DNA of 64,000 nt from Patescibacteria group bacterium (GTDB lineage Bacteria; Patescibacteriota; Minisyncoccia; Phycocordibacterales; JAKAEA01), in contig JAZKCY010000001.1 in assembly GCA_040387855.1 (NCBI GenBank), positions 104,396-168,395 on the forward strand, in the 5' to 3' direction. Of the stretch, positions 16,579 through 63,270 are shown in pieces. The first letter of the stretch is position 1, and the number at the start of each line of letters is the position of its first letter. The notes under the pieces were generated by a model, which made no database searches, was not told the DNA's origin, and saw only the letters and a list, made by a program, of their open reading frames with translations. Both the position numbers and the translations under genes were made by a program.

Positions 16579-16591
16579 TACTCCATACAAA

Positions 16592-16620
16592 AATCCCCAC
16601 CATCTGGTTGGGGTTTTTTG
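16592..16620 (+). terminator. rho-independent terminator immediately after rplB
   Basis: CCCCACC-ATCT-GGTTGGGG hairpin followed by TTTTTTG. Confidence 0.65.
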
Positions 16621-16624
16621 TTTG

Positions 16625-16652
16625 TTGACAAAACACAGAAATACTATATAAC
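16625..16652 (+). promoter_or_regulatory. sigma70-like promoter (TTGACA, 16-nt spacer, TATAAC) upstream of the MYG1 gene
   Basis: Hexamers read directly from the sequence. Confidence 0.45.
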
Positions 16653-16706
16653 TACGCACAGAATCCAGCTCGCGTGAGTATGGAAGGGGAGACACATGTT
16701 TAAAAC

Positions 16707-17618
16707 ATGGGAGAACTCGTGAACGACAAGCTTCCGATTCGTTGGTCAGGCGAGAAGCTGGTGGCATGCACTCACAGCGGACGGTTTCATGGTGATGAAA
16801 TCCATGCTGCCGGCGTCTTGGCTGCCCGCGGCATGGTTAACGAGTTTCGGCGGAGCCGAGACCCTGCAGTGCTCGCCACGTGTGATCTGCGTTTCGACGT
16901 GGGCTACATGTACGATTCAGCCACTATGGACTTCGACCACCATCAAGACGGTGGAGCCGGTGTTCGGGACAACGGTGTGCCGTATGCATCGGCCGGGCTT
17001 ATCTGGGCTCACTTCGGCCATGAGTTGTGCAACGACGATGCCGAGGTACATGCAGAGGTCGACAGGATCCTGTTCCAGCCGATCGACGCACGGGATGTGG
17101 GCTACGACAAGCACATCAAGGCTGGCCAGGGGCTCGTCTACGGCATTTCCGACGACATCCGTCGTCGCAACCCGCCGCCGTTTAGTGACGTAAATTCGGA
17201 CGCTGTCTTCTTAGAGGTGGTGGAGGAGGCCAGGCGTCGTATTGTCGCGGAAGTCGCACTCGTGACGACCGATCTCCGGATCATTCCTCCGTATATCGAG
17301 CGAATGCTCGCTGTTGCGGATACGCCGGGGCTGCTCGTGCTCGACATCGCCTACGACTGGCCCAAGGTTATGCAGAAGTACGCCCCGAACATCTCGGTGA
17401 TCGTCTTTCCGAGCGAAGACGAGAGCGGCTGGAGAGTTCAGTCGGTCAACCTGCAGAAGAGACCGTTGCCTCGTTTATGGGCTGGCAAAAACGGCGCGGA
17501 CATGGTGAAAGCCTCGGGTGTGGCAGACGCACAGTTCTGCAACGCTAAGGGTTATCTCGCCAGTGCCCAAAGCATGGAAGGCGCCGTGGCTTTAGCAGAA
17601 ATCGTGCTTCGAATATAG
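16707..17618 (+). CDS. MYG1/UPF0160-family metal-dependent hydrolase (3'-5' exonuclease-type), high GC (about 59%)
   Basis: Contains CTHSGRFHGDE, RSRDP, CDLRFDVG, DHHQ and SAGLIWAHFGH, matching the conserved MYG1 motifs across the full length. Composition is foreign relative to the surrounding ribosomal-protein genes. Confidence 0.85.
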   Translation: MGELVNDKLPIRWSGEKLVACTHSGRFHGDEIHAAGVLAARGMVNEFRRSRDPAVLATCDLRFDVGYMYDSATMDFDHHQDGGAGVRDNGVPYASAGLIWAHFGHELCNDDAEVHAEVDRILFQPIDARDVGYDKHIKAGQGLVYGISDDIRRRNPPPFSDVNSDAVFLEVVEEARRRIVAEVALVTTDLRIIPPYIERMLAVADTPGLLVLDIAYDWPKVMQKYAPNISVIVFPSEDESGWRVQSVNLQKRPLPRLWAGKNGADMVKASGVADAQFCNAKGYLASAQSMEGAVALAEIVLRI

Positions 17619-17619
17619 G

Positions 17620-17655
17620 AGGAGATCGACTCGTCGGTCTTGCTCCTTTTTTTTA
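17620..17655 (+). terminator. rho-independent terminator after the high-GC MYG1 gene
   Basis: GGAGATCGAC...GTCGGTCTTGCTCC imperfect hairpin followed by T8. Confidence 0.5.
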
Positions 17656-17681
17656 TACCTCTACAGTGATACGATATATCT

Positions 17682-18629
17682 ATGTTTACTACTATCTACA
17701 TTCCCACAAGAATTCAAAACGATACTGCATCAGCAATTTTTATATTAAAGAAATATGGCCGAGAAAAATTTCCAGGGATTGAAAACGCAAAGATAGAAAT
17801 TAGATCTGTTATACCTGTAGGTTTTACTGAAGAAGCTTTGGAAAAAGAGGGGATAGTACTTGTTGATATTGGAAAGGGTAAATTTGATCACCATGGCTCA
17901 GAAGTACAAATTACTTCAACCGATCTCGTATGTAAATTCTTGGGTGTTATAGATAATCCAGCATTAGAAAAGCTTCGAAAATATGTGGAGCGATGTGACT
18001 TTTTTGGTAAAGGCATTATTTCAAATGATCCATTAGATAGAGCTTTTGGATTGCCAGGGCTCCTTATAAATTTAAATAAAAAGCATAACTCAGAGCCAAA
18101 TTCTGTGTACCCAATAATTGCCGAACTTTTTGATGCTCACGTTTTAGAAGAAGAACAGCGTACAGTAGGGTTACCAAAAGAAGTTGAAGAAAAAACCACA
18201 GCTGGATTGGTGGATATATTTAGCCTCAAGCATCATGGCAAAAATATTAAGTGCATCTATATTGCTTCAGATAATATCAGCCTTTCAGGATACCTTCGTT
18301 CTCAAATGGGCGGAGCATATGATGTTGCGATTATTCATATGAGCACAGGACATATAAATATTATGACTCGTCCTGCCAAGCGTGTTGATTTACATGCTCT
18401 CATTGCTGTCATACGCCGCTCAGAGCTTATGAAACGTGGTGACGTGAAGCTCTACACCAATGATCTTCTTTCTCAGACAGGCCGCTTTGATAAGGTCCCT
18501 CAGTGGTATTATGATCCTGCTACAAACTCACTTCAAAACGGAGGGATCAATCCAGGGCAAATAGAAAAGACTGTACTCTCTCGAAAAGAAATAATTGAAT
18601 TGGTGAAAGTGGGATTGGGAGATAGATAA
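17682..18629 (+). CDS. divergent MYG1-like paralog (low GC); the N-terminal His/Asp metal motif is not conserved
   Basis: VLVDIGKGKFDHHG aligns to the DVG..DHHQ region of the upstream MYG1, but the THxGxFHxDE block reads TRIQNDTASA. Confidence 0.5.
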   Translation: MFTTIYIPTRIQNDTASAIFILKKYGREKFPGIENAKIEIRSVIPVGFTEEALEKEGIVLVDIGKGKFDHHGSEVQITSTDLVCKFLGVIDNPALEKLRKYVERCDFFGKGIISNDPLDRAFGLPGLLINLNKKHNSEPNSVYPIIAELFDAHVLEEEQRTVGLPKEVEEKTTAGLVDIFSLKHHGKNIKCIYIASDNISLSGYLRSQMGGAYDVAIIHMSTGHINIMTRPAKRVDLHALIAVIRRSELMKRGDVKLYTNDLLSQTGRFDKVPQWYYDPATNSLQNGGINPGQIEKTVLSRKEIIELVKVGLGDR

Positions 18630-18637
18630 TATTTTTT

Positions 18638-19087
18638 ATGATTATAGAACCAGATCAGCACTATTATGAAAATGGGAAATATGTGTGGACTCCTGAAAAA
18701 AGGGCTGCTGCGTGGGAAAAATGTTTTACTGTTTTAGAACAAGAAGCGACATCTGGAAAATTTAAAAAGATAGTGATGCTTATTGGCATTCCAGGAGCAG
18801 GGAAGAGTACCTACACTAAAGCTCATGATAGTGAGTCTACTATTATATTTGATGGAGTCTTTGTAAATCCGAAAGAACGGGAACGAGCTATTACTATTGC
18901 ACATTCAACAGGCCTTCCGATTGAAGGGGTGTGGCTTAATACACCTTTAGAAATATGTTTGGAAAGAAATGCTCAAAGAACTGATGATAGAAAGGTACGG
19001 GAGGATCATGTAACTATGATGTATGAGAATTTACAGAAAAATAAGCCTCGTTTAGAAGAGGGATATACGACATTTATAGAGCAATAA
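18638..19087 (+). CDS. small P-loop NTPase/kinase (AAA_33 / polynucleotide-kinase-like)
   Basis: 149 aa with Walker A GIPGAGKST, a downstream D/R-rich lid, and a size and architecture resembling Pnk/zeta-type kinase domains. Confidence 0.55.
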   Translation: MIIEPDQHYYENGKYVWTPEKRAAAWEKCFTVLEQEATSGKFKKIVMLIGIPGAGKSTYTKAHDSESTIIFDGVFVNPKERERAITIAHSTGLPIEGVWLNTPLEICLERNAQRTDDRKVREDHVTMMYENLQKNKPRLEEGYTTFIEQ

Positions 19088-19093
19088 AGACAC

Positions 19094-19121
19094 TTGACAA
19101 TATATATAGCTGTGCTATAAT
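19094..19121 (+). promoter_or_regulatory. consensus sigma70 promoter (TTGACA, 16-nt spacer, TATAAT) for the 19172 gene
   Basis: Perfect hexamers read directly from the sequence. Confidence 0.55.
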
Positions 19122-19171
19122 ATACACCGTACCAGTTCCGTCAGTTTTCACCTACTAGAAAGGGTCATTCC

Positions 19172-19855
19172 ATGACCGCTTCGTCCACCCCCAGCGTCGC
19201 TTCCGCCAAGATCCTGATGTCCAGCCTCCGCACCGTGAACCGGTTCGTGCTGAACTTCCAGGTCGAGGGCCTGCGCCCGCCGAGCAACTTCCCGCCGATC
19301 CGCGAGTGCGCCCCCCTCACCACGGGGACCAAGGCGCCCAAGCAGGTCGAGCGCGGCGAGAAGCTCGTCGAGCGGACCCGCGAGGTCTGCTCGCTCGATG
19401 CCCCGAGCATCATCAGCGCCTGCTTTGACGCCGGCCTGATCTACTGCAAGATGCTCATGCTCCCCAAGGGTCCGCCCACGGTCAGCATGCGCTTCAAGCG
19501 GCAGACGGAGCAGACCGACGCGGTCGCCCCGAACGACGCCAACTACCTCACGACGGAGATCGAGACGATCTACGGTCCGTGGATGGTGATGCTCCAGGGC
19601 TCGCTCCGGCTCGACTGCAACTTCGACCCCTACGGGCTCACCGTGGAGGAGGAGGCCGAGTACCTGCGGAAGCGCTACCGGAACGCCGGCACGCACAACG
19701 CGACGGAGATCGAGCGCAAGGTCAAGCAAGAGGCCACGGGCACGCCGTACCTCCTGACCGGGACGCACTACGTCGAGGCCCTGCGGCTCACCCCGCCGGC
19801 CTACCACAGGCTGTTCGCCCACGAGGGTGCGCTCCTGCTCGACGGCGAGCTCTAG
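19172..19855 (+). CDS. hypothetical protein, very high GC (about 65%, strongly GC3-biased), unknown function
   Basis: 227 aa with normal amino-acid composition and GC-ending codons. The overlapping minus-strand ORF 19148..19969 is judged to be a high-GC antisense artefact. Confidence 0.6.
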   Translation: MTASSTPSVASAKILMSSLRTVNRFVLNFQVEGLRPPSNFPPIRECAPLTTGTKAPKQVERGEKLVERTREVCSLDAPSIISACFDAGLIYCKMLMLPKGPPTVSMRFKRQTEQTDAVAPNDANYLTTEIETIYGPWMVMLQGSLRLDCNFDPYGLTVEEEAEYLRKRYRNAGTHNATEIERKVKQEATGTPYLLTGTHYVEALRLTPPAYHRLFAHEGALLLDGEL

Positions 19856-19911
19856 GTCGATGTTCGACCCAGCGTTTTGATGAACAATACCCCAAACTAG
19901 AAAGGTGAACA

Positions 19912-19940
19912 GGCCGATGCATAAACTGCATCGGCCTTTC
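19912..19940 (+). terminator. rho-independent terminator after the 19172 gene
   Basis: GGCCGATGCA-TAAAC-TGCATCGGCC perfect 10-bp stem followed by TTT. Confidence 0.6.
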
Positions 19941-19953
19941 ACTTGGGAAAGAT

Positions 19954-19980
19954 TTGACATGCTCCACACTTTCGTATAAT
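19954..19980 (+). promoter_or_regulatory. consensus sigma70 promoter (TTGACA, 15-nt spacer, TATAAT) re-initiating the rpsS-rplV-rpsC... operon
   Basis: Hexamers read directly from the sequence. Confidence 0.55.
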
Positions 19981-20031
19981 ATGTGACTCACGCTCTGAAC
20001 TAGAGCTCTTTTGTTTCATATATATCTATCC

Positions 20032-29019: not shown

Positions 29020-31797
29020 ATGGAAAATCCAAATCTACTTCAACCAGAACAAAAATTTTCTTCACCTGAAGAAGAGTTAGCATATTTAAGAAATCAGGTA
29101 GCTGTGCGAGAGAGGGAACTCATGGCACGAGGTGCAGAAGTTACACGTGATGAAGTTATTTCAGATAAAGTAAAAGATTACAGCTATGCTCCCACACAAG
29201 CTGTGTTACACGAGACCCACAAAGCACCCGATACTTATATAGAAGACTTAGCCCTCAATCTCGCTCCTGAGACTCATGATTATAAAATTATAGAACTTGT
29301 AAAAATCCTTAAAGAAAAGGGGATTAAAAATGCTATGGATGTGGTGGCTGAAATGAATGATCCGCACGTTGAGGATGATTTTCATAGATTCTTAGTACAG
29401 TATGTTAAAAAAGGTTTAGTAATAGATGGATTGAAGCCGAAATCTGAATTGTTTAGAGAGCTTAATATGACACTCTATGAAGTGTCTCTTCCTGACTCAA
29501 AAGATCAGGAAAATAAAAGCATTAAAGAGCTTGTTTCATCGATGGAGCAGTTTTACTCAGGTATGATGGCTATTGAAGACCGTGATGATTCAGGCAGATA
29601 TTTTTCTATTGAAATTGCCAACCCAAATCATAGTGAAGAATTTATTGTATATGTATCGGTGCCTGATACAAAAAAGAATTTGTTTGAAAAGCAAATCCTT
29701 TCACTGTTTCCATTGGCAAAGATCAAAGAAATTCCCGATGACTACAATATCTTTAATGAAGCAGGAGCAACGGTAGGATCAGTTGCAGAATTTGATTCGC
29801 ATGCTGCATTACCTATCAAAACATACGAAACATTTGATCATGATCCAATGAACGTAGTGTTGAATACGTTTTCTAAAATTAAAAAAGACGGCGAAGGTGC
29901 CGCAATTCAGTTTATAATTCGACCGCCTGTTGCAGATGAATATGTAAAGCAATACAAAATGACCCTTGAGCAAGTACAAAAGGGGACAAAGCTTAAGGAT
30001 GCACTTCCAAAATCTATAGCTAAAGAAGTGTTTGGCAGTTTTAAAGATGTGTTCTTCGGAAGTAAAAAAGATGAAGACAAAGATACATCAAAAACTGTTG
30101 ATGAAAATGCAGTAGAGCAATTAAAGAATAAAATTTCTAGTCCAATTGCTGAAGTGAATATTCGTATTATTGCATCAGCACCTACTATTTCTGACGCAGA
30201 TAAAATAATTTCGGACATTGAATCAAGTTTCCGTCAGGTGGAAAATACGCAAGGGAATAAACTTATCTTTAAGCGACAAAGTGGTAAAAAACTTATTGCA
30301 ATGGCAAAAGATTTTTCATACCGAGCTTTTACTTCAGACCATTTACTACCTATAAACTTTAAGGAACTTACAACACTTTTTCACTTTCCAGGATCAACTA
30401 TCAAATCATCTCCACAACTTAAGCAAAGTATGGCAGCATCAGCTCCTGCACCTATGGATATGCCTCAAGATGGAACATTACTTGGTGTAAATAGATTCCG
30501 AAATGTTGAGACTAAAGTATTCATGACTAAAGAAGATCGATTGCGACATATGTATGTGATCGGACAAACTGGAACTGGTAAATCAACTATCCTCAAGAAT
30601 ATGATTGCTCAAGATATTCTCCAGGGAGAGGGAGTATGTATGATTGACCCTCACGGCGTAGATATTTTGGATATTCTTTCTATTATTCCTCCAGAACGAT
30701 ATGAAGATATTATTTACTTTGATCCAAGTGATACAAAGCGACCAATGTCTCTCAACATGCTTGAGTATGATAGACGTTATCCAGAACAGAAGACATTCGT
30801 GGTCAACGAAATGATGTCTATTTTTAACAAGCTTTTCGATATGAAAACATCGGGAGGTCCAATGTTTGAACAGTACTTCCGAAATGCAACAATGCTTGTG
30901 ATTGAAGACCCAGATACTGGTTCTACTCTTTTGGACGTATCTCGTGTACTTGCCGATAAAGCATATCGACAGCTGAAAATTGCGCGATGTAAAAATCCTA
31001 TTGTTGTGCAATTCTGGAAAGAGATTGCCGAGAAGGCTGGAGGAGAAGCATCCCTTGGTAATATTGTGCCGTATATTACCTCTAAATTCGACGTATTCCT
31101 CTCAAACGACATCATGAGACCAATTGTGTCTCAGGAACAATCAAGCTTCAATTTTAGAGAGCTTATGGATACTAAGAAGATTCTCTTAGTGAACCTTGCC
31201 AAGGGACGACTTGGAGATATTAATGCCAATCTCATTGGTCTTATTATTGTGGGGAAAATCTTGATGGCCGCACTTTCACGAGCTGATTCACTTCATCTAA
31301 ATCCAGCTCCGTTTTATCTTTATATCGACGAGTTCCAAAACGTAACTACCGATTCTATTTCAACTATTCTTTCTGAAGCTCGAAAGTACAAGCTTTCACT
31401 CAATGTTGCTCACCAATTTATCGCCCAACTAGATGAAGGTATTCGAGACTCCGTGTTTGGAAACGTAGGAAATATGGCGGTATATCGAGTGGGTGCAGAT
31501 GATGCAGAATTTCTTGAAAAACAATTTGCTCCTGAATTTACTGCAAAAGATATTATGAATATTGAGAACTACCATGCATATCTCAAGATACTTGTTCGCG
31601 GAAAGCCGGTAAAACCTTTTGATATTAAGGCACAAGCATCTCCACAAGGTAAGAAAGATCATCTTGAAAAACTCAAAGAACTTTCAGGTTTGAAATATGG
31701 CCGTGATCGAGCAGATGTAGAGGCTGACATTATGCTTAAGTATAAAAAGCCAGATCCTGTGCCTCCAGTTGCACCAGCAGCAGCAACAAAGTTATAA
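29020..31797 (+). CDS. VirB4/TraG-superfamily (FtsK/HerA-like, AAA_10/DUF87) type-IV-secretion-type ATPase with a large soluble N-terminal domain and no TM segments
   Basis: 925 aa with Walker A VIGQTGTGKST, Walker B-like LYIDEFQNV, and the ARKYKLSLNVAHQ (RK...[AS]xQ) motif typical of VirB4/TraC/T4CP ATPases. Confidence 0.55.
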   Translation: MENPNLLQPEQKFSSPEEELAYLRNQVAVRERELMARGAEVTRDEVISDKVKDYSYAPTQAVLHETHKAPDTYIEDLALNLAPETHDYKIIELVKILKEKGIKNAMDVVAEMNDPHVEDDFHRFLVQYVKKGLVIDGLKPKSELFRELNMTLYEVSLPDSKDQENKSIKELVSSMEQFYSGMMAIEDRDDSGRYFSIEIANPNHSEEFIVYVSVPDTKKNLFEKQILSLFPLAKIKEIPDDYNIFNEAGATVGSVAEFDSHAALPIKTYETFDHDPMNVVLNTFSKIKKDGEGAAIQFIIRPPVADEYVKQYKMTLEQVQKGTKLKDALPKSIAKEVFGSFKDVFFGSKKDEDKDTSKTVDENAVEQLKNKISSPIAEVNIRIIASAPTISDADKIISDIESSFRQVENTQGNKLIFKRQSGKKLIAMAKDFSYRAFTSDHLLPINFKELTTLFHFPGSTIKSSPQLKQSMAASAPAPMDMPQDGTLLGVNRFRNVETKVFMTKEDRLRHMYVIGQTGTGKSTILKNMIAQDILQGEGVCMIDPHGVDILDILSIIPPERYEDIIYFDPSDTKRPMSLNMLEYDRRYPEQKTFVVNEMMSIFNKLFDMKTSGGPMFEQYFRNATMLVIEDPDTGSTLLDVSRVLADKAYRQLKIARCKNPIVVQFWKEIAEKAGGEASLGNIVPYITSKFDVFLSNDIMRPIVSQEQSSFNFRELMDTKKILLVNLAKGRLGDINANLIGLIIVGKILMAALSRADSLHLNPAPFYLYIDEFQNVTTDSISTILSEARKYKLSLNVAHQFIAQLDEGIRDSVFGNVGNMAVYRVGADDAEFLEKQFAPEFTAKDIMNIENYHAYLKILVRGKPVKPFDIKAQASPQGKKDHLEKLKELSGLKYGRDRADVEADIMLKYKKPDPVPPVAPAAATKL

Positions 31798-56380: not shown

Positions 56381-56626
56381 TCATGTCCACATGCTTATTA
56401 GCTTCTCCTTCTTATCTCTTCGCCATTTTTTAATCTGAATTTCTCTTTTGCGAGCAGAGGCCAATGTTGCATGTGTTTCAAGAAACACTATTTTGAATTC
56501 TGATTTAAATTTTGTGTAGTAAGCACCTCGCCCAGAGTTGTGCTCAGCTAATCTCCTTTGTGGTTCATCGGTTACTCCAATATATAAATTGTTATAGGAG
56601 TTTTTTATCATGTAGACGTAGTACAT
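56381..56626 (-). CDS. small GIY-YIG nuclease-superfamily protein (UPF0213/YhbQ-like)
   Basis: YVYMIKNSYNNLYIGVT...RRLAEHN...KKW. Confidence 0.7.
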   Translation of the reverse strand: MYYVYMIKNSYNNLYIGVTDEPQRRLAEHNSGRGAYYTKFKSEFKIVFLETHATLASARKREIQIKKWRRDKKEKLISMWT

Positions 56627-56732
56627 GAGAGGAGTATGAAACAGGGAAGGTGAAACAGATATAAAGAAAAGATAAACACAGAAAAGCCCGTTCGACTCCT
56701 CGAAGACTCGTCGCTCAGGGCACTCGATTCGC

Positions 56733-56770
56733 AGTAACAAAAAACACTACTGTTTTAACAATAGTGTTTT
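56733..56770 (-). terminator. rho-independent terminator of ssrA
   Basis: AAAACACTA / TAGTGTTTT 9-bp stem, followed on the - strand by TTTTTTGTT. Confidence 0.55.
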
Positions 56771-56817
56771 AGGTGGCTTGCCACGAGTGATCCTGCGTTC
56801 TTGCGCGGCGAATCGAG

Positions 56818-57226
56818 TGGAGATGGCGGGAATCGAACCCGCGTGCAAAAGAAGTTCTTAAATGGGTCTACAATGTATAGAGAATCTTAACCACCCGAAG
56901 GTGGGTTTAAACGCAGTGGGTAAAAAGATAATCAAAATTCCCACGTTGCCGAGTCCCTTTATTTCGATCAATCATCGGAACGAGTGAAAGATCTATCTCA
57001 ACGATATACCACCAACACTTAGTAAGTTGAGAAAAAACTAAGGTGGCGTCGTCTGGCTACCGTTTAAAGGGGTTTACGCGAGAGCGAAAGCGAAGTTACT
57101 TGCGTAAGGCGAAGCAACTGCTGTTCGTGCTGATTTTGCACTTGAAGTTTCCGTCAGATTTAAGAGTTAACGGTGCTCTACATTGCGCAGATAAGAAACA
57201 AACTCTTGTCTAGGCCGATCATCCCC
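56818..57226 (-). ncRNA. ssrA: tmRNA (transfer-messenger RNA)
   Basis: The 5' GGGGATG pairs with the 3' CATCTCC-A, including the G3:U70 alanine identity pair. The T-arm reads GCGGGTTCGATTCCCGC. There is an internal in-frame tag ORF ...AVASPYASNFAFALA* ending in TAA. smpB lies immediately upstream. Confidence 0.85.
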
Positions 57227-57323
57227 TGGGAGACATTCACTCACACTCATATATAGAGGGAAGTGAATAGCTTTCAGTGAACGACTGGCCGCAAAGTATT
57301 TAGTTTTCAAAGTGCTTACAAGA

Positions 57324-57782
57324 CTAACGATCTTTATACTCTCTTCGTATCTGACGTTCGGTATCGCGTTTCTTTATTGATTCGCGTTTATCAAACTGCT
57401 TCTTTCCTCGAACTGTTGCAATTTCAACCTTAATCTTGTGTCCTTTATTATACACTGTAATTGGCACTATTGTCAATCCTTTAACGAGGCCTGCAAGTTT
57501 GGCTATTTCATTGCGTGTAAGCAACAATTTGCGGTTTTGCAGAGGATCATAATCATCTACATTTCCTACCTGATATGGAGGGATTTGCATGTGCATTATA
57601 TAGGCTTCTCCACCACGAATGATGATATATGAGCCTTCAAGTGACCCTTGGCCCTTGCGAAGTGACTTCACTTCCTGACCAGATAGCACAATACCAGCCT
57701 CGAAGCGCTCGAGGATTTCGTAGGTAAAGTGGACTTTTCGGTTGTGGATGAGTGTGCTCACATAATTATGATAACAGAGCAT
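57324..57782 (-). CDS. smpB: SsrA-binding protein SmpB
   Basis: NRKVHFTYEILERFEAGIVLSGQEVKSLR. The exact start is uncertain. Confidence 0.85.
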   Translation of the reverse strand: MLCYHNYVSTLIHNRKVHFTYEILERFEAGIVLSGQEVKSLRKGQGSLEGSYIIIRGGEAYIMHMQIPPYQVGNVDDYDPLQNRKLLLTRNEIAKLAGLVKGLTIVPITVYNKGHKIKVEIATVRGKKQFDKRESIKKRDTERQIRREYKDR

Positions 57783-57864
57783 GGCCGAAAGTATAGGGGA
57801 GCTCATGCGTCCATACATATATATACGGTAACGGGATAGCTTTTTTAATGTATAATAATCACCT

Positions 57865-59796: not shown

Positions 59797-59804
59797 GAAC
59801 AACA

Positions 59805-59835
59805 AAACCCTGCAGAGATGCAGGGTTTTGTTTTG
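59805..59835 (+). terminator. rho-independent terminator of ftsH
   Basis: CCCTGCA-GAGAT-GCAGGG followed by TTTTGTTTTG. Confidence 0.6.
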
Positions 59836-59842
59836 AAAAATG

Positions 59843-59916
59843 TCCACCCTCTTGGATTCGAACCAAGGACCACCGAGGTATAAGCTCGGTGCTCTAACCA
59901 ACTGAGCTAAGGGTGG
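59843..59916 (-). tRNA. tRNA with anticodon UAU (Ile-type, AUA-reading), 74 nt, CCA not encoded
   Basis: Manual fold: acceptor CCACCCT/AGGGTGG, D-arm GCTC-AGTTGGTTA-GAGC, anticodon arm CCGAG-CTTATAC-CTCGG, variable loop TGGTC, T-arm CTTGG-TTCGAAT-CCAAG, discriminator A. Confidence 0.75.
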
Positions 59917-59984
59917 AATAGGCTGATTCTATAGGAAAAAGAAGCTTTAATCAATGTTACCTGAAAGCCGGGCTTGCGTAGTAT

Positions 59985-61049
59985 ATGCATATGAAAAACA
60001 ATATTATTATCATTGCCGGTATTGCCGTACTCATGAGCTTGTTTTCAGTAGGCTCTACGGCTCACGCCCTTAGTCCTTTACCGGATTTTGAGCGACGAAT
60101 GTGCGTTGGGATTGATTCAAATTTAACCGTAGGTTCACGAGATAAAGTTCCAACTGGATATGTATTTCGATTACAGCAGTATCTACAATCAGCAGGATTC
60201 TTAAATGTTAATCCAACAGGGTATTTTGGATCACTTACCAAAGAAGCAGTACGAAAATTCCAGCAATCAAATGGAGTTTCAGCAACTGGATATTTTGGAC
60301 CTCTTACTCGAGCAAAGCTTAAAGCTGTAAGTTGTACAGATGATATGCCAACTCCACCAGTTGTATCAAAAGATTTTTCTATTAGTGCAACTACAGATAA
60401 ATCTGTATATGTATCTGGTGAACCAATTGTTGTAACTATTACAGCAAAAAATATGGCATCAACTCCAAAGAATATGGAGTTTACCAATGGGTGTGAGACA
60501 GCTCTTAAAATTGGTGATTACGATCAAGTGCCAGTTCGACTTTGTATCTTGATGCTTAGTACAAAAACATTTGCAGCAGGGGAATCAAAGACATGGACAG
60601 TTACACTTCCAAAAGAAGAATATCAGGTACCTGTGGGAACTCACATTCTTGAAGCAAGTATCACAGGATACGGTGCAGCAAAAGTTCCTCTTACTGTAGT
60701 AGCATCACAAACAAGTCTAATGGTGACTTACCCAAAGGGAGGAGAGACATGGAAGATGGGAACTACACAAAAGGTTACATGGATGATGTCTAATGCAACA
60801 CCATACTCACGAGTAGATATTAAAATCCGACCAGCCATAGTATGTATTACTACACCATGTGAAGCAGAACCAGTACTCTCAATTAAAAATGCGCCGTTTG
60901 ATATTGCAAATCCATTTTACACCATCAATCTAAATCAAGGTGCAAACAAAGATGCGATTTTTTCTCCTGGAAATTATACAGCTGAAGTTTGCATAACAGG
61001 CACAACTATTTGTGCAAAGAGTGCATCACACTTTACTGTTGTTGAGTAA
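59985..61049 (+). CDS. secreted protein with a peptidoglycan-binding-like domain (paralog-like to 54259..55551)
   Basis: Signal peptide, then RLQQYLQSAGFL...TKEAVRKFQQSNGVSATGYFGPLT. Confidence 0.5.
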   Translation: MHMKNNIIIIAGIAVLMSLFSVGSTAHALSPLPDFERRMCVGIDSNLTVGSRDKVPTGYVFRLQQYLQSAGFLNVNPTGYFGSLTKEAVRKFQQSNGVSATGYFGPLTRAKLKAVSCTDDMPTPPVVSKDFSISATTDKSVYVSGEPIVVTITAKNMASTPKNMEFTNGCETALKIGDYDQVPVRLCILMLSTKTFAAGESKTWTVTLPKEEYQVPVGTHILEASITGYGAAKVPLTVVASQTSLMVTYPKGGETWKMGTTQKVTWMMSNATPYSRVDIKIRPAIVCITTPCEAEPVLSIKNAPFDIANPFYTINLNQGANKDAIFSPGNYTAEVCITGTTICAKSASHFTVVE

Positions 61050-61113: not shown

Positions 61114-63270
61114 TTATTCAAAGTGGATGTCATCTTGTCGTGCGACTTTATTTTTTAAGATGGGGTAGTGGGAGAGCGTAAGATCATGTTCAAGAAGAGT
61201 CCGAGCTTCGGTACGGGCTGCTTCTACCATTTTCAGATTTTTCATTGCTTCCATCGCCAGGTCAGAAACACCCCATTGCTTACGACCATAGAGCTGCCCG
61301 GCACCGCGGAGTTGAAGATCAAATTCAGAAAGTTCAAATCCGTTTTTTGCAGTCTTTAATGCATTGAGTCGGTCCATTGATTTCTGTGATGATGTCTCAG
61401 AAAAGACATAACAGTATGCCTGATGATTGGATCGAATAACACGACCTCGTAATTGGTGCAGCTGTGAAAGACCAAAACGTTCTGCTCCTTCAATAATAAT
61501 AATAGTAGCATTAGGAACATTTACTCCCACTTCAACTACCGATGTGGCAACAAGAATATGTATTTTGCCGTCAGAGAAATCTTGCATCACATCTTCTTTC
61601 TCATCAGGTTTCATCTTGCTATGCAAAATGTCTATGTTGTACTCAGGGAAGACTTCTTTCTTAAGTCGCTTTGCTTCTTCTTTTACCGATTTTGCTTCGA
61701 CAGCAAATTCTTTTGATGGATCTGGCTCATCAATGCGCGGACATATCACATAAAGCTGTCGGCCAGCTTTCATTTCTTCCCGAATCCTTTCGTACGTTTG
61801 CGCACGCTTTGTTGGAGGAATAATATCAGTAATTATTGGCTTTCGTCCTACCGGCATTTGATCAAGCAGCGTTAAATCAAGATCACCAAAGACAGTAAGA
61901 GCGAGCGTGCGGGGAATAGGGGTTGCAGTCATTGAAAGCAGATGTGGAATTTGGGCTTGTTTGTTTACAAGTTTTTGTCGTTGCTTGGTACCAAATCTGT
62001 GTTGCTCATCAATGATTACATATGACAGATGCTTAAACTGCACGGCTTTTTGAATAAGAGAATGCGTTCCAATAAGAATGGGAATTTCACCATTGGCTAC
62101 CCATTTCAAAAGTTGGGTGCGAGAAATGTCGGTCCATCCTTCAGGATTTACTTTTGAAGGAAACTTTTTGCAACCAGATGAAGTGATGAGTCCAATACTA
62201 ATTCCTAAATGATAAAAATATTTAATAAATGATTCGAAATGTTGTTTGGCCAAGATTTCAGTAGGGCACATGTAGGCAACTTGAAGAGTCCCGAAAACTT
62301 GTCCCTTTGGACGAGTGGTTACTGCTGCATAAGTGGTAGTTGCTGCCACTGCTGTTTTTCCAGATCCCACATCTCCTTCAAGAAGTCGTGACATAGGATG
62401 ACCTGATTTAAAATCATCGATGATTTGTGAGATGGCTTTTGCTTGTGCTTCGGTTTCTTTAAACGGAAAACGTGAAGTGAACTTTTCTAAATCAGAATAC
62501 TCTTTTTCGATAATAAATGCAGGATTATTTTCGTTCTCGAGTCTATCTTTTTGTTTTAAGAGCTGGATCATAAACACTTCTTCAAAAGCAAAACGTTTTC
62601 GTGCTGCTTCAGAGTCACTCAATTTGCGGGGAGTGTGAATCCAGATAAGCGCAGTCTTTAATCCAGGTAATTTATATTTTTCTAGAATTTCTTGTGGAAT
62701 TGGATCTTCACATGAATCTAAACTATTTGCAGAAAATACTTTTTGAATAGCATGAAAGATCCATCGTGAAGTAATTCCCTGAGTTTCAGGATATACAGGG
62801 TAGAGACCACCTTGCTCGTGTGATTCGCCAAAAAGGGAAGTGCCTGCAACTGCTGGAGGCTTATCGGTAAATTCATATTCAGGATTTGAAAGATAGAAGC
62901 CTCCTGTTTTTCGTTCACTTACTTTTCCTGTAAAGCGAGCATATGATCCTTCGGGAATCATCTTGGCAATATATGCTTGGTGAAACCACACTACTCCCAT
63001 AGTTCCTGTCGCATCTTCAAGCGTAGCTTTGGCCATGGGGATCTTAGAACGAAAACCTTTTTTTAATTCTACCCCTGTAATTTTTGCATAAATAGAAGCT
63101 GTTTCTCCTTTAACCAAATTAGAAATATTTTTAACATCTCCAGCTTCAGAATAGCGGGTGGGGAAATAGTAGAGCAAATCTTCAATAGTCTTAAGACCAA
63201 GTCGTTGAAGTGCTTTCTTTTGGATATCTAATGTTCGGAAGGCTTTCTCAATCGGTGTCGTGAGTTCCAT
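61114..63270 (-). CDS. recG: ATP-dependent DNA helicase RecG
   Basis: Wedge domain, DVGSGKT Walker A and DEQHRFG Walker B. 718 aa. Confidence 0.9.
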   Translation of the reverse strand: MELTTPIEKAFRTLDIQKKALQRLGLKTIEDLLYYFPTRYSEAGDVKNISNLVKGETASIYAKITGVELKKGFRSKIPMAKATLEDATGTMGVVWFHQAYIAKMIPEGSYARFTGKVSERKTGGFYLSNPEYEFTDKPPAVAGTSLFGESHEQGGLYPVYPETQGITSRWIFHAIQKVFSANSLDSCEDPIPQEILEKYKLPGLKTALIWIHTPRKLSDSEAARKRFAFEEVFMIQLLKQKDRLENENNPAFIIEKEYSDLEKFTSRFPFKETEAQAKAISQIIDDFKSGHPMSRLLEGDVGSGKTAVAATTTYAAVTTRPKGQVFGTLQVAYMCPTEILAKQHFESFIKYFYHLGISIGLITSSGCKKFPSKVNPEGWTDISRTQLLKWVANGEIPILIGTHSLIQKAVQFKHLSYVIIDEQHRFGTKQRQKLVNKQAQIPHLLSMTATPIPRTLALTVFGDLDLTLLDQMPVGRKPIITDIIPPTKRAQTYERIREEMKAGRQLYVICPRIDEPDPSKEFAVEAKSVKEEAKRLKKEVFPEYNIDILHSKMKPDEKEDVMQDFSDGKIHILVATSVVEVGVNVPNATIIIIEGAERFGLSQLHQLRGRVIRSNHQAYCYVFSETSSQKSMDRLNALKTAKNGFELSEFDLQLRGAGQLYGRKQWGVSDLAMEAMKNLKMVEAARTEARTLLEHDLTLSHYPILKNKVARQDDIHFE

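Follow-up and report, generated by a model that had tools for sequence, protein, structure and literature searches.

A conserved tRNA-Ile(UAU) gene adjoining ftsH in Patescibacteria, a probable TilS-independent reader of AUA

Introduction

How does the bacterium that carries this locus read the isoleucine codon AUA? Most bacteria use a tRNA-Ile2 with a CAU anticodon whose C34 is converted to lysidine by TilS, which is described as an essential enzyme possessed by ~98% of annotated bacterial genomes (PMC12514573). Genome-encoded bacterial tRNA-Ile(UAU) is already known. In the tRNAscan-SE 2.0 survey, it is listed for 17 genomes, which belong to Bifidobacterium, Mycoplasma and Neorickettsia (PMC8450103). 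It is catalogued in 19 species in tRNADB-CE (PMC4013482), and it was characterised biochemically in Mycoplasma mobile (PMC3575796). The gene studied here is another instance. An earlier note, made from the letters alone, had recognised it and proposed that it implied either the loss of tilS or a second AUA-decoding route. Here, we examine the gene, its neighbourhood and its relatives in order to weigh these two possibilities.

Results

The tRNA gene and its fold

The window, which is the whole 64-kb stretch of DNA analysed, contains only two RNA genes detected by ARAGORN, a tmRNA and a tRNA-Ile(tat) called at 59842-59916 on the minus strand; no other tRNA was detected in it. The Rfam model RF00005 matched positions 59843-59916 of the same strand with 71.3 bits (gathering score 29). 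Its alignment spanned the model end to end, with a posterior probability of '*' at all positions and a 7-nt anticodon loop. The anticodon UAU is located at 59880-59882, where the plus strand reads ATA. Both programs bear out the cloverleaf that had been folded by hand in the earlier note, with the loop CTTATAC placing TAT at positions 34-36, and the anticodon (tat) and isotype (Ile) given by ARAGORN are those that it had claimed. The coordinates given in that note were also right, and to them the minus strand can now be added.

In RNA sense, the gene reads CCACCCUUAGCUCAGUUGGUUAGAGCACCGAGCUUAUACCUCGGUGGUCCUUGGUUCGAAUCCAAGAGGGUGGA. It shows a 7-bp acceptor stem, D, anticodon and T arms, U33 and the T-loop GTTCGAAT, and its ends are defined by the pair C1-G72 and the discriminator A73. 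CCA is not encoded, the sequence directly 3' being CAUUUUU. The minimum free energy fold (-32.7 kcal/mol, z = -3.9) was more stable than all of 200 shuffled sequences. Positions 37 and 38 are occupied by A and C, respectively. Position 34 is T in the gene, which thus lacks the C34 (CAT) that characterises canonical TilS substrates.

Table 1. Features of the locus, in window coordinates.
Feature	Position	Strand	Basis
tmRNA	56817-57226	minus	ARAGORN
smpB	57324-57818	minus	
ftsH, 643 aa	57865..59796	plus	Pfam FtsH_ext, AAA, Peptidase_M41
Perfect 14-bp inverted repeat, 4-nt loop, T-runs on both strands	59801..59832	.	
tRNA-Ile(UAU) gene, 74 nt	59843..59916	minus	ARAGORN, Rfam RF00005, fold, covariation
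Anticodon loop CUUAUAC	59878..59884	minus	sequence and Rfam alignment
Promoter-like site TTGATT, 17-nt spacer, TAGAAT	59926..59954	minus	consensus scan
PG_binding_1/BsuPI protein gene	59985-61049	plus	
recG	61114-63270	minus	

The locus and its host

The genes follow one another in the order tmRNA(-), smpB(-), ftsH(+), tRNA-Ile(UAU)(-), PG-binding gene(+), recG(-) and HhH-GPD glycosylase gene(-) (Table 1). The promoter-like site ends 9 nt upstream of the mature tRNA 5' end; it agrees with the consensus at 9 of 12 positions and, with 1 site found for 0.6 expected, is a consensus match only. The hairpin following ftsH is a probable bidirectional terminator common to the convergent ftsH and tRNA genes. 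Judging from these promoter-like and terminator-like signals, the tRNA gene looks expressed. No integrase or phage gene adjoins it in the window. A GIY-YIG ORF is located ~3 kb away.

The window has a GC content of ~40%, and its DNA was also found in Logan assemblies of run SRR26324620. It also holds a ribosomal-protein/EF-Tu/SecY cluster, ComEC, a VirD4-like ATPase and many ORFs without Pfam match. Among named organisms, the FtsH relatives with 70-79% identity came from MAGs labelled Candidatus Parcubacteria, Kaiserbacteria, Paceibacterota and "Patescibacteria group", which indicates that the host is a Patescibacterium of the Parcubacteria/Paceibacteria type. A saccharibacterial host, which MAG labels had first suggested, was rejected in view of these FtsH relatives. 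No tilS gene (PF01171 protein) was found in the window and its flanks, that is in ~77 kb of this genome. Also, neither ileS nor U34-modification genes were detected in the window, its Logan contigs or any fetched locus.

Linkage of the tRNA gene to ftsH in relatives

We fetched 80 metagenome loci carrying FtsH relatives with 48-75% identity to the window FtsH. The presence of tRNA-Ile(UAU) beside ftsH followed FtsH identity, being observed in 24 of the 27 evaluable loci at or above 60% identity, in 11 of 26 between 52 and 60%, and in 0 of 20 below 52%. Overall, the link was kept among relatives whose FtsH is 52-83% identical. The tRNA gene lies just downstream of ftsH, in either orientation, at a median distance of less than 100 bp. 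In a crude neighbour-joining tree of FtsH, these UAU-type loci form essentially one clade that includes the window.

An identical layout was seen in L094, a locus on a 1,001,674-bp contig with an FtsH 79% identical, in which the same arrangement extends from tmRNA through recG and the glycosylase gene. Synteny with recG is shared by L004, L008, L011, L012 and L094, and tmRNA/smpB also precede ftsH in L009 and L094. In more distant UAU-type loci, ftsH is followed by tRNA-Ile(UAU) and then by tRNA-Val(GAC). None of the UAU-type loci showed a CAU tRNA, and tilS was upstream of ftsH in none of the 20 evaluable close relatives. In the window, tmRNA and smpB (56817..57818) fill the slot that tilS takes in tilS-positive relatives; tilS directly precedes ftsH in other bacteria too, some Patescibacteria among them. 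Another 20 loci of lower FtsH identity had neither tilS nor tRNA-Ile(UAU) beside ftsH, so this adjacency is not obligatory.

The earlier note had described genome-encoded UAU tRNAs as rare and found mainly in a few reduced or AT-rich genomes. The rarity holds for the survey cited above, with its 17 genomes, but within this lineage tRNA-Ile(UAU) is the rule. The tie to AT-rich genomes was not borne out, as the GC content of UAU-type loci ranges between 0.32 and 0.59.

Homologues and covariation

A search for the anticodon arm, in which position 34 could be either C or T, covered 185,579 species, each represented by a single genome. Eleven loci were retrieved. Ten are bacterial tRNA-Ile(UAU) genes, all with U34, and almost all of them come from MAGs of Patescibacteria, which bear the labels Saccharibacteria, Paceibacterota, Kaiserbacteria or Patescibacteria group or are unnamed; one MAG is labelled Gammaproteobacteria. 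No C34 form of this arm was found in the bacteria of this set, the sole C34 match being an archaeal tRNA. The MAG MDV bin76 seemed to carry two copies (L008, L009); this was rejected, as they correspond to one copy split at a contig break.

In an alignment of 37 distinct tRNA-Ile(UAU) homologues, 99.5% of the cells of the cloverleaf formed standard pairs. Compensatory changes on both sides were observed at 17 of the 21 pairs, including all five of the anticodon stem. None of 500 shuffles attained the observed value. When the 3' partners were slid by 1-3 columns as a control, only 26-46% of the cells were paired. Residues C32, U33, U34, A35, U36, A37 and A73 were invariant (37/37), as was U12-A23, and C4-G69 was present in 33 of 37. 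This covariation around an invariant loop indicates that the tRNA is under purifying selection with a fixed UAU anticodon. Thus, the gene is real, structurally constrained and deeply conserved. Also, no alternative register was found for the one-nucleotide loop shift envisaged by the earlier note, the loop being the same in all homologues and the pairing collapsing on sliding.

Position 38 was more variable, with C in 23 homologues, U in 7 and A in 7. A38 was present in every CAU tRNA examined. It is a speculation that a pyrimidine at this position might tune the discrimination between AUA and AUG.

AUA usage

In the 77 ORFs of the window, AUA accounts for 265 of 1518 Ile codons (17%) and for 13.7 per 1000 codons, a frequency at which a decoder is needed. 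At the 263 AUA positions of the FtsH genes of UAU-type loci, the residues of homologues were I (0.40), V (0.20), L (0.14) and M (0.03). This profile was indistinguishable from that of AUU and AUC positions, which indicates that AUA is still read as Ile. The core of the earlier reading, a genome-encoded tRNA-Ile(UAU) serving as AUA decoder, is supported by the UAU call and by the codon-usage check that it had suggested, AUA being both used and isoleucine. AUA usage was also considered as a signature of the UAU system, and this was rejected: once GC was controlled, UAU-type and tilS-type loci did not differ (coefficient -0.002).

Identity elements and an Ile2-type body

When the isotype was sought by BLAST against annotated E. 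coli genomes, the best matches were tRNA-Arg and tRNA-Val (77-86% identity), cross-phylum BLAST not being diagnostic. The Rfam family RF04354 (Plastid-ycf2), which overlaps plastid trnI-CAU on the opposite strand, proved more discriminating and was used as a probe for the Ile2 type. On the antisense strand of the tRNA, it scored 47 bits in the window and 43 bits for the UAU tRNA of L003. The only match outside the UAU type, among ~20 tRNAs of five control loci (Val, Leu, Met, fMet, Phe, Gly, Cys), was the CAU tRNA abutting tilS in L082 (34 bits). The probe missed the more divergent UAU tRNA of L047, which has A at position 38. The tRNA-Ile2(CAU) of L098 had a mean identity of 0.74 to UAU tRNAs, versus 0.67 to other CAU or Val tRNAs. 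These comparisons lend modest support to the descent of tRNA-Ile(UAU) from a gene of the tRNA-Ile2 type.

The identity set of E. coli IleRS comprises A73, A35, U36, A37, U12-A23, C4-G69, A38 and C29-G41. The window tRNA possesses A73, A35, U36, A37, U12-A23 and C4-G69, but has C38 and G29-C41, in a comparison with a set that belongs to a type-1 IleRS and may not fit a type-2 enzyme.

Charging and modification

We looked for the synthetase in Minisyncoccus archaeiphilus, which we take to be the sole cultured member of the Paceibacteria. Its IleRS contains PF00133, PF08264 and PF19302 and lacks a Zn finger (no zf-FPG). In a Pfam control, PF19302 was found at the C-terminus of the type-2 MupA, and PF06827 in the type-1 IleRS of E. 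coli. The presence of PF19302 without Zn finger, together with this control, indicates that the IleRS of Minisyncoccus is type-2. A literature search on DUF5915/PF19302 returned nothing. Type-2 IleRS goes with the tilS-less, UAU-using Bifidobacterium and Neorickettsia (Taniguchi 2013, PMC3575796), and the type-1 IleRS of E. coli charges UAU poorly (PMC3575796). To accept U34, an IleRS would have to be type-2, or type-1 with Arg or Lys where E. coli has W905. By analogy with its Minisyncoccus relative, the host would charge tRNA-Ile(UAU) with a type-2 (eukaryote-like) IleRS.

TsaE and MnmA are both present in Minisyncoccus. TsaE makes t6A37 plausible, and A37 of tRNA-Ile(UAU) presumably carries this modification. 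As for tilS, it is not among the ~500 of 1305 Minisyncoccus CDSs listed, from which FtsH is missing as well, so that this is not telling.

tilS-bearing counterpart loci

In 8 metagenome loci, ftsH is immediately preceded by an ORF of the TilS family, as confirmed with Pfam PF01171 and a custom HMM; 3 of these loci have clusters of CAU tRNAs beside tilS. Among the tilS-positive loci, L058 is the one nearest to the UAU clade; its TilS is a short type-II enzyme, whose named relatives belong to Candidatus Moranbacteria and the "Parcubacteria group". Three further Moranbacteria loci contain S1, gmk/cmk, tilS, ftsH and tRNA-Val(GAC), and no UAU tRNA within 10 kb. In one of them, L098, a tRNA(CAU) comes next after the tRNA-Val(GAC) downstream of ftsH. 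A full-length comparison of this tRNA(CAU) with the E. coli ileX-type tRNA-Ile(CAT) beside mug gave 87.8% identity, and both tRNAs have the anticodon stem-loop CGACUCAUAAUCG. Thus, L098 shows that, within Patescibacteria, ftsH can be bordered by tilS on one side and by the gene of its substrate, tRNA-Ile2(CAU), on the other.

In the cultured saccharibacterium Southlakia epibionticum, tilS (SEML1_0730, PF01171) also lies immediately upstream of ftsH (SEML1_0729) and is scored as essential in two of three Tn-seq columns (PMC10633639). Its gene table shows three tRNA-Met (CAU) genes, two of them at most 5 kb from tilS, and only one gene for tRNA-Ile, which belongs to the rRNA operon; MnmA is listed, and MnmE and MnmG are absent from the table as words (PMC10633639).

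The UAU tRNA was present in 0 of the 8 tilS metagenome loci versus 26 of the 46 without tilS upstream (Fisher p = 0.0045, a value inflated by shared ancestry). With the three Moranbacteria loci, which were fetched by their TilS, this becomes 0 of 11 tilS-ftsH loci. No evaluable locus combined a tilS gene upstream of ftsH with a UAU tRNA.

Discussion

Replacement of the lysidine route

We propose that this gene encodes a functional elongator tRNA-Ile(UAU), derived from tRNA-Ile2, which reads AUA by Watson-Crick pairing and does not need TilS, and we give this reading a probability of roughly two in three. In the nomenclature of tRNAscan-SE, it would be a tRNA-Ile3(UAU). The tRNA has most likely replaced the TilS/lysidine route, and we infer that tilS and tRNA-Ile2(CAU) are absent genome-wide. 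Of the two implications drawn in the earlier note, the loss of tilS is thus favoured over a second AUA route.

The replacement could have started from a module that looks ancestral and that Moranbacteria still possess, tilS-ftsH-tRNA-Val-tRNA-Ile2(CAU). A change of C34 to U in the tRNA-Ile2 gene beside ftsH, together with the loss of the neighbouring tilS, would have produced the derived state, in which a U34 tRNA adjoins ftsH and tilS is no longer there. The anticodon U34 A35 U36 would pair directly with AUA, making the conversion of C34 to lysidine by TilS dispensable. Misreading of AUG might be limited by the pyrimidine at position 38, by the modification state of U34, or by the ribosome as in Mycoplasma mobile.

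Alternative explanations

The alternative that deserves the most attention is that tilS and tRNA-Ile2(CAU) sit elsewhere in the genome and that tRNA-Ile(UAU) is a parallel reader of AUA. Such double systems exist in L. casei, L. plantarum, Cyanothece PCC 7424 and Ferrimonas (PMC3575796). Moreover, tilS does occur in Patescibacteria (Moranbacteria, Southlakia) and is not always beside ftsH, as indicated by the 20 loci with neither feature, and our view of this genome amounts to ~77 kb. However, the complete separation of the two systems, in 11 tilS-ftsH loci on one side and 20 close relatives on the other, argues against coexistence, as does the scan of bacterial genomes, in which this tRNA body never occurred with C34. 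The UAU state is also ancient and clade-wide rather than sporadic, and keeping two routes over the long term would be less parsimonious. We therefore regard a redundant decoder as unlikely, although it has to be kept in mind.

The other readings are far less probable. Phages often carry tRNAs for rare codons, and the GIY-YIG ORF nearby could suggest a recent mobile or phage-borne gene, or a decaying pseudogene, without a core role in translation. Yet the chromosomal position between ftsH and recG is kept in relatives down to ~53% FtsH identity, the stems show strong compensatory covariation around an invariant anticodon loop, and the gene has promoter-like and terminator-like signals and no adjoining integrase or phage genes. 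Such an origin, which we hold to be very improbable, is effectively refuted by synteny and covariation. Altered codes are known in some Patescibacteria (UGA reassignment in Gracilibacteria and Absconditabacteria), so one may ask whether AUA has been reassigned here, or the tRNA charged with another amino acid, for example Met as in many mitochondria. Against this stand the I/V/L profile at AUA positions of FtsH, with Met at only 0.03 and no departure from AUU and AUC, the elements A73, U12-A23 and C4-G69 shared with tRNA-Ile, and the dependence of MetRS on a CAU anticodon; on the sequences compared, a reassignment appears highly improbable and effectively excluded. Finally, an anticodon mis-called because of a fold shifted by one nucleotide is hardly conceivable, since two independent programs agree, each of the five pairs of the anticodon stem shows covariation, and sliding the pairing by at least one column makes the paired fraction fall from 99.5% to ~40%.

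Extent and significance of the trait

The reading of tRNA-Ile(UAU) as a replacement for TilS may extend well beyond this genome. A large part of the Patescibacteria (the Parcubacteria/Paceibacteria type and some MAGs labelled Saccharibacteria) would have given up TilS and lysidine for a tRNA-Ile(UAU) charged by a type-2 IleRS and characterised by a pyrimidine at position 38. For this wider proposal, we find the balance tilting slightly in favour. How widely the trait is spread through the lineage, that its linkage to ftsH is fixed, and that Moranbacteria have a tilS-ftsH-tRNA-Ile2(CAU) counterpart all appear to be unreported. In the open literature that was searched, no mention was found of lysidine together with Patescibacteria or CPR, nor of Parcubacteria paired with tilS.

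If the abandonment of TilS is clade-wide, this would be by far the largest TilS-independent bacterial clade known, and Moranbacteria versus the rest would constitute a natural before/after series for the re-engineering of AUA/AUG discrimination. To address how a U34 tRNA avoids AUG, numerous independent sequences are available in the lineage, as is a tilS-positive sister group that shares its gene neighbourhood. Routine use of UAU by a major uncultured radiation would mean that the "near-universal" status of lysidine needs qualifying. Also, annotation pipelines for Patescibacteria and models of minimal translation should then expect tRNA-Ile(UAU) and no tilS, and antibacterials targeting TilS would miss these organisms. 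The interest of the locus would rise further if the clade-wide loss of tilS holds genome-wide.

Comparison with known systems

In the canonical system, TilS converts the CAU anticodon of tRNA-Ile2 to LAU. The locus shares with it the problem of distinguishing AUA from AUG, the ftsH neighbourhood and an Ile2-type body, but differs by T at position 34, hence the absence of a TilS substrate, and by the lack of tilS upstream of ftsH. The C38 of the window tRNA likewise departs from the A38 of canonical CAU tRNAs examined.

Mycoplasma mobile provides a close parallel, as its genome-encoded tRNA-Ile2(UAU) reads AUA in a bacterium with a reduced genome (PMC3575796) and has an Ile2-like body, A37 and A73. 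tilS is lacking in M. mobile and probably here as well. However, the type-1 IleRS of M. mobile owes its adaptation to one Arg of the Zn-binding domain, while the nearest cultured relative of our host has a type-2 enzyme. In M. mobile, U34 is unmodified and the ribosome rejects AUG. Also, that case is an isolated event at the species level, in contrast to a clade-wide trait linked to ftsH.

If the type-2 IleRS proposed above holds, the closest mechanistic analogues would be Bifidobacterium and Neorickettsia, which combine a UAU tRNA with such an enzyme (PMC3575796; PMC8450103). They are unrelated to our host at the level of the phylum, and in them the absence of tilS was established from complete genomes, while here it is proposed with ~77 kb of sequence in view. 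The double systems of L. casei, L. plantarum, Cyanothece PCC 7424 and Ferrimonas also read AUA with a bacterial tRNA-Ile(UAU), but they are sporadic and coexist with tilS, unlike the clade-wide state described here. The suppressor tRNA-Ile1(G34U) of a B. subtilis tilS deletion reads AUA as well and rescues the loss of tilS; it is a laboratory event, and its origin is tRNA-Ile1(GAU) rather than a gene of the Ile2 type.

Outside Bacteria, the archaeal tRNA-Ile3(UAU) of Nanoarchaeum and Korarchaeum similarly replaces a modified-cytidine route in small-genome episymbionts (PMC8450103). Archaeal and eukaryotic cytosolic tRNA-Ile(UAU) belong to other domains of life and are charged by type-2 IleRS. 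In eukaryotes, the anticodon of this tRNA is modified to pseudouridine-A-pseudouridine.

Sequence features of the tRNA-Ile(UAU)

The alignment of 37 distinct tRNA-Ile(UAU) genes (A1) showed a pyrimidine at position 38 in 30 of them (C in 23, U in 7), whereas A38 was found in every CAU tRNA seen as well as in the most divergent UAU group. The acceptor stem began with an unusual C1-G72 pair in 15/37 genes, including that of the window, and the CCA end was encoded in only 7 of the 37.

tRNA arrays downstream of ftsH

Where a tRNA-Ile(UAU) lies 3' of ftsH in more distant lineages (loci L047, L060, L062, L053, L057, and L040), this tRNA was the first gene of a tRNA array, whose order 3' of ftsH was Ile(UAU), Val(GAC), Leu(GAG), Val(UAC), Phe, Gly, etc. 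The tRNA-Val(GAC) was retained at the same place in the Moranbacteria loci where tilS lies directly upstream of ftsH.

Coordinates of the features described.
Feature	Sequence	Positions	Description
Position 38 of tRNA-Ile(UAU)	window	59878	
S10-operon insert	window	16580-20010	
Insert ORF			MYG1/UPF0160 exonuclease
Insert ORF			315 aa, without Pfam match
Insert ORF			AAA_33/zeta-toxin-like kinase
VirD4/TraG-like coupling ATPase	window	29020-31797	925 aa; DUF87, TraG-D_C, FtsK_SpoIIIE
tmRNA and GIY-YIG nuclease region	window	56381-57226	
tRNA-Ile(UAU)	L010	3554-3629	MAG labelled 'uncultured Gammaproteobacteria'
tRNA(CAU)	L002	4446-4520	Haloferacaceae (archaeal)
Region upstream of tmRNA-smpB	L094	588-9049	serine resolvase, HTH/Peptidase_M78 pair, ThiF + Prok-E2_E + BubE set

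Related tRNAs under other taxonomic labels

The tRNA-Ile(UAU) of L010, in which G1 pairs with U72 and the CCA end is encoded, presented an anticodon arm exactly of the Patescibacteria type, and it adjoins a tRNA-Val(GAC). Its presence in this MAG could be due to mis-binning, to horizontal transfer or to an independent origin. The archaeal tRNA(CAU) of L002, whose anticodon stem was identical to that of the Patescibacteria UAU tRNAs, shared 80% identity with the Moranbacteria tRNA-Ile2(CAU) and is probably an agmatidine-type tRNA-Ile2.

Possible inserted elements in relatives and other genes of the window

Among the FtsH homologues, the close relative P0149 suggests an intein inserted in the ftsH of a Patescibacterium, as this protein is 1079 aa long and contains homing-endonuclease and intein domains (PF05204, PF14528, PF14890). 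On the 1.0-Mb contig of the relative with the same gene layout (L094), the genes upstream of tmRNA-smpB look like a ubiquitin-like (Bub/Bil-type) anti-phage island beside the tmRNA gene. The tmRNA of the window, which is directly adjoined by the GIY-YIG nuclease ORF, encodes the tag peptide AKSARTAVASPYASNFAFALA.

The S10 ribosomal-protein operon of the window was split between rplB (L2) and rpsS (S19) by an insert of about 3.4 kb, the GC content of which was higher (0.49 vs. about 0.40). In the roughly 900 bp following the kinase ORF of this insert, ORFs overlapped on both strands and gave zero matches. The gene of the VirD4/TraG-like ATPase immediately followed the ribosomal-protein cluster at its adk-map end, and a similar protein is present in Minisyncoccus, a cultured relative within the Paceibacteria.
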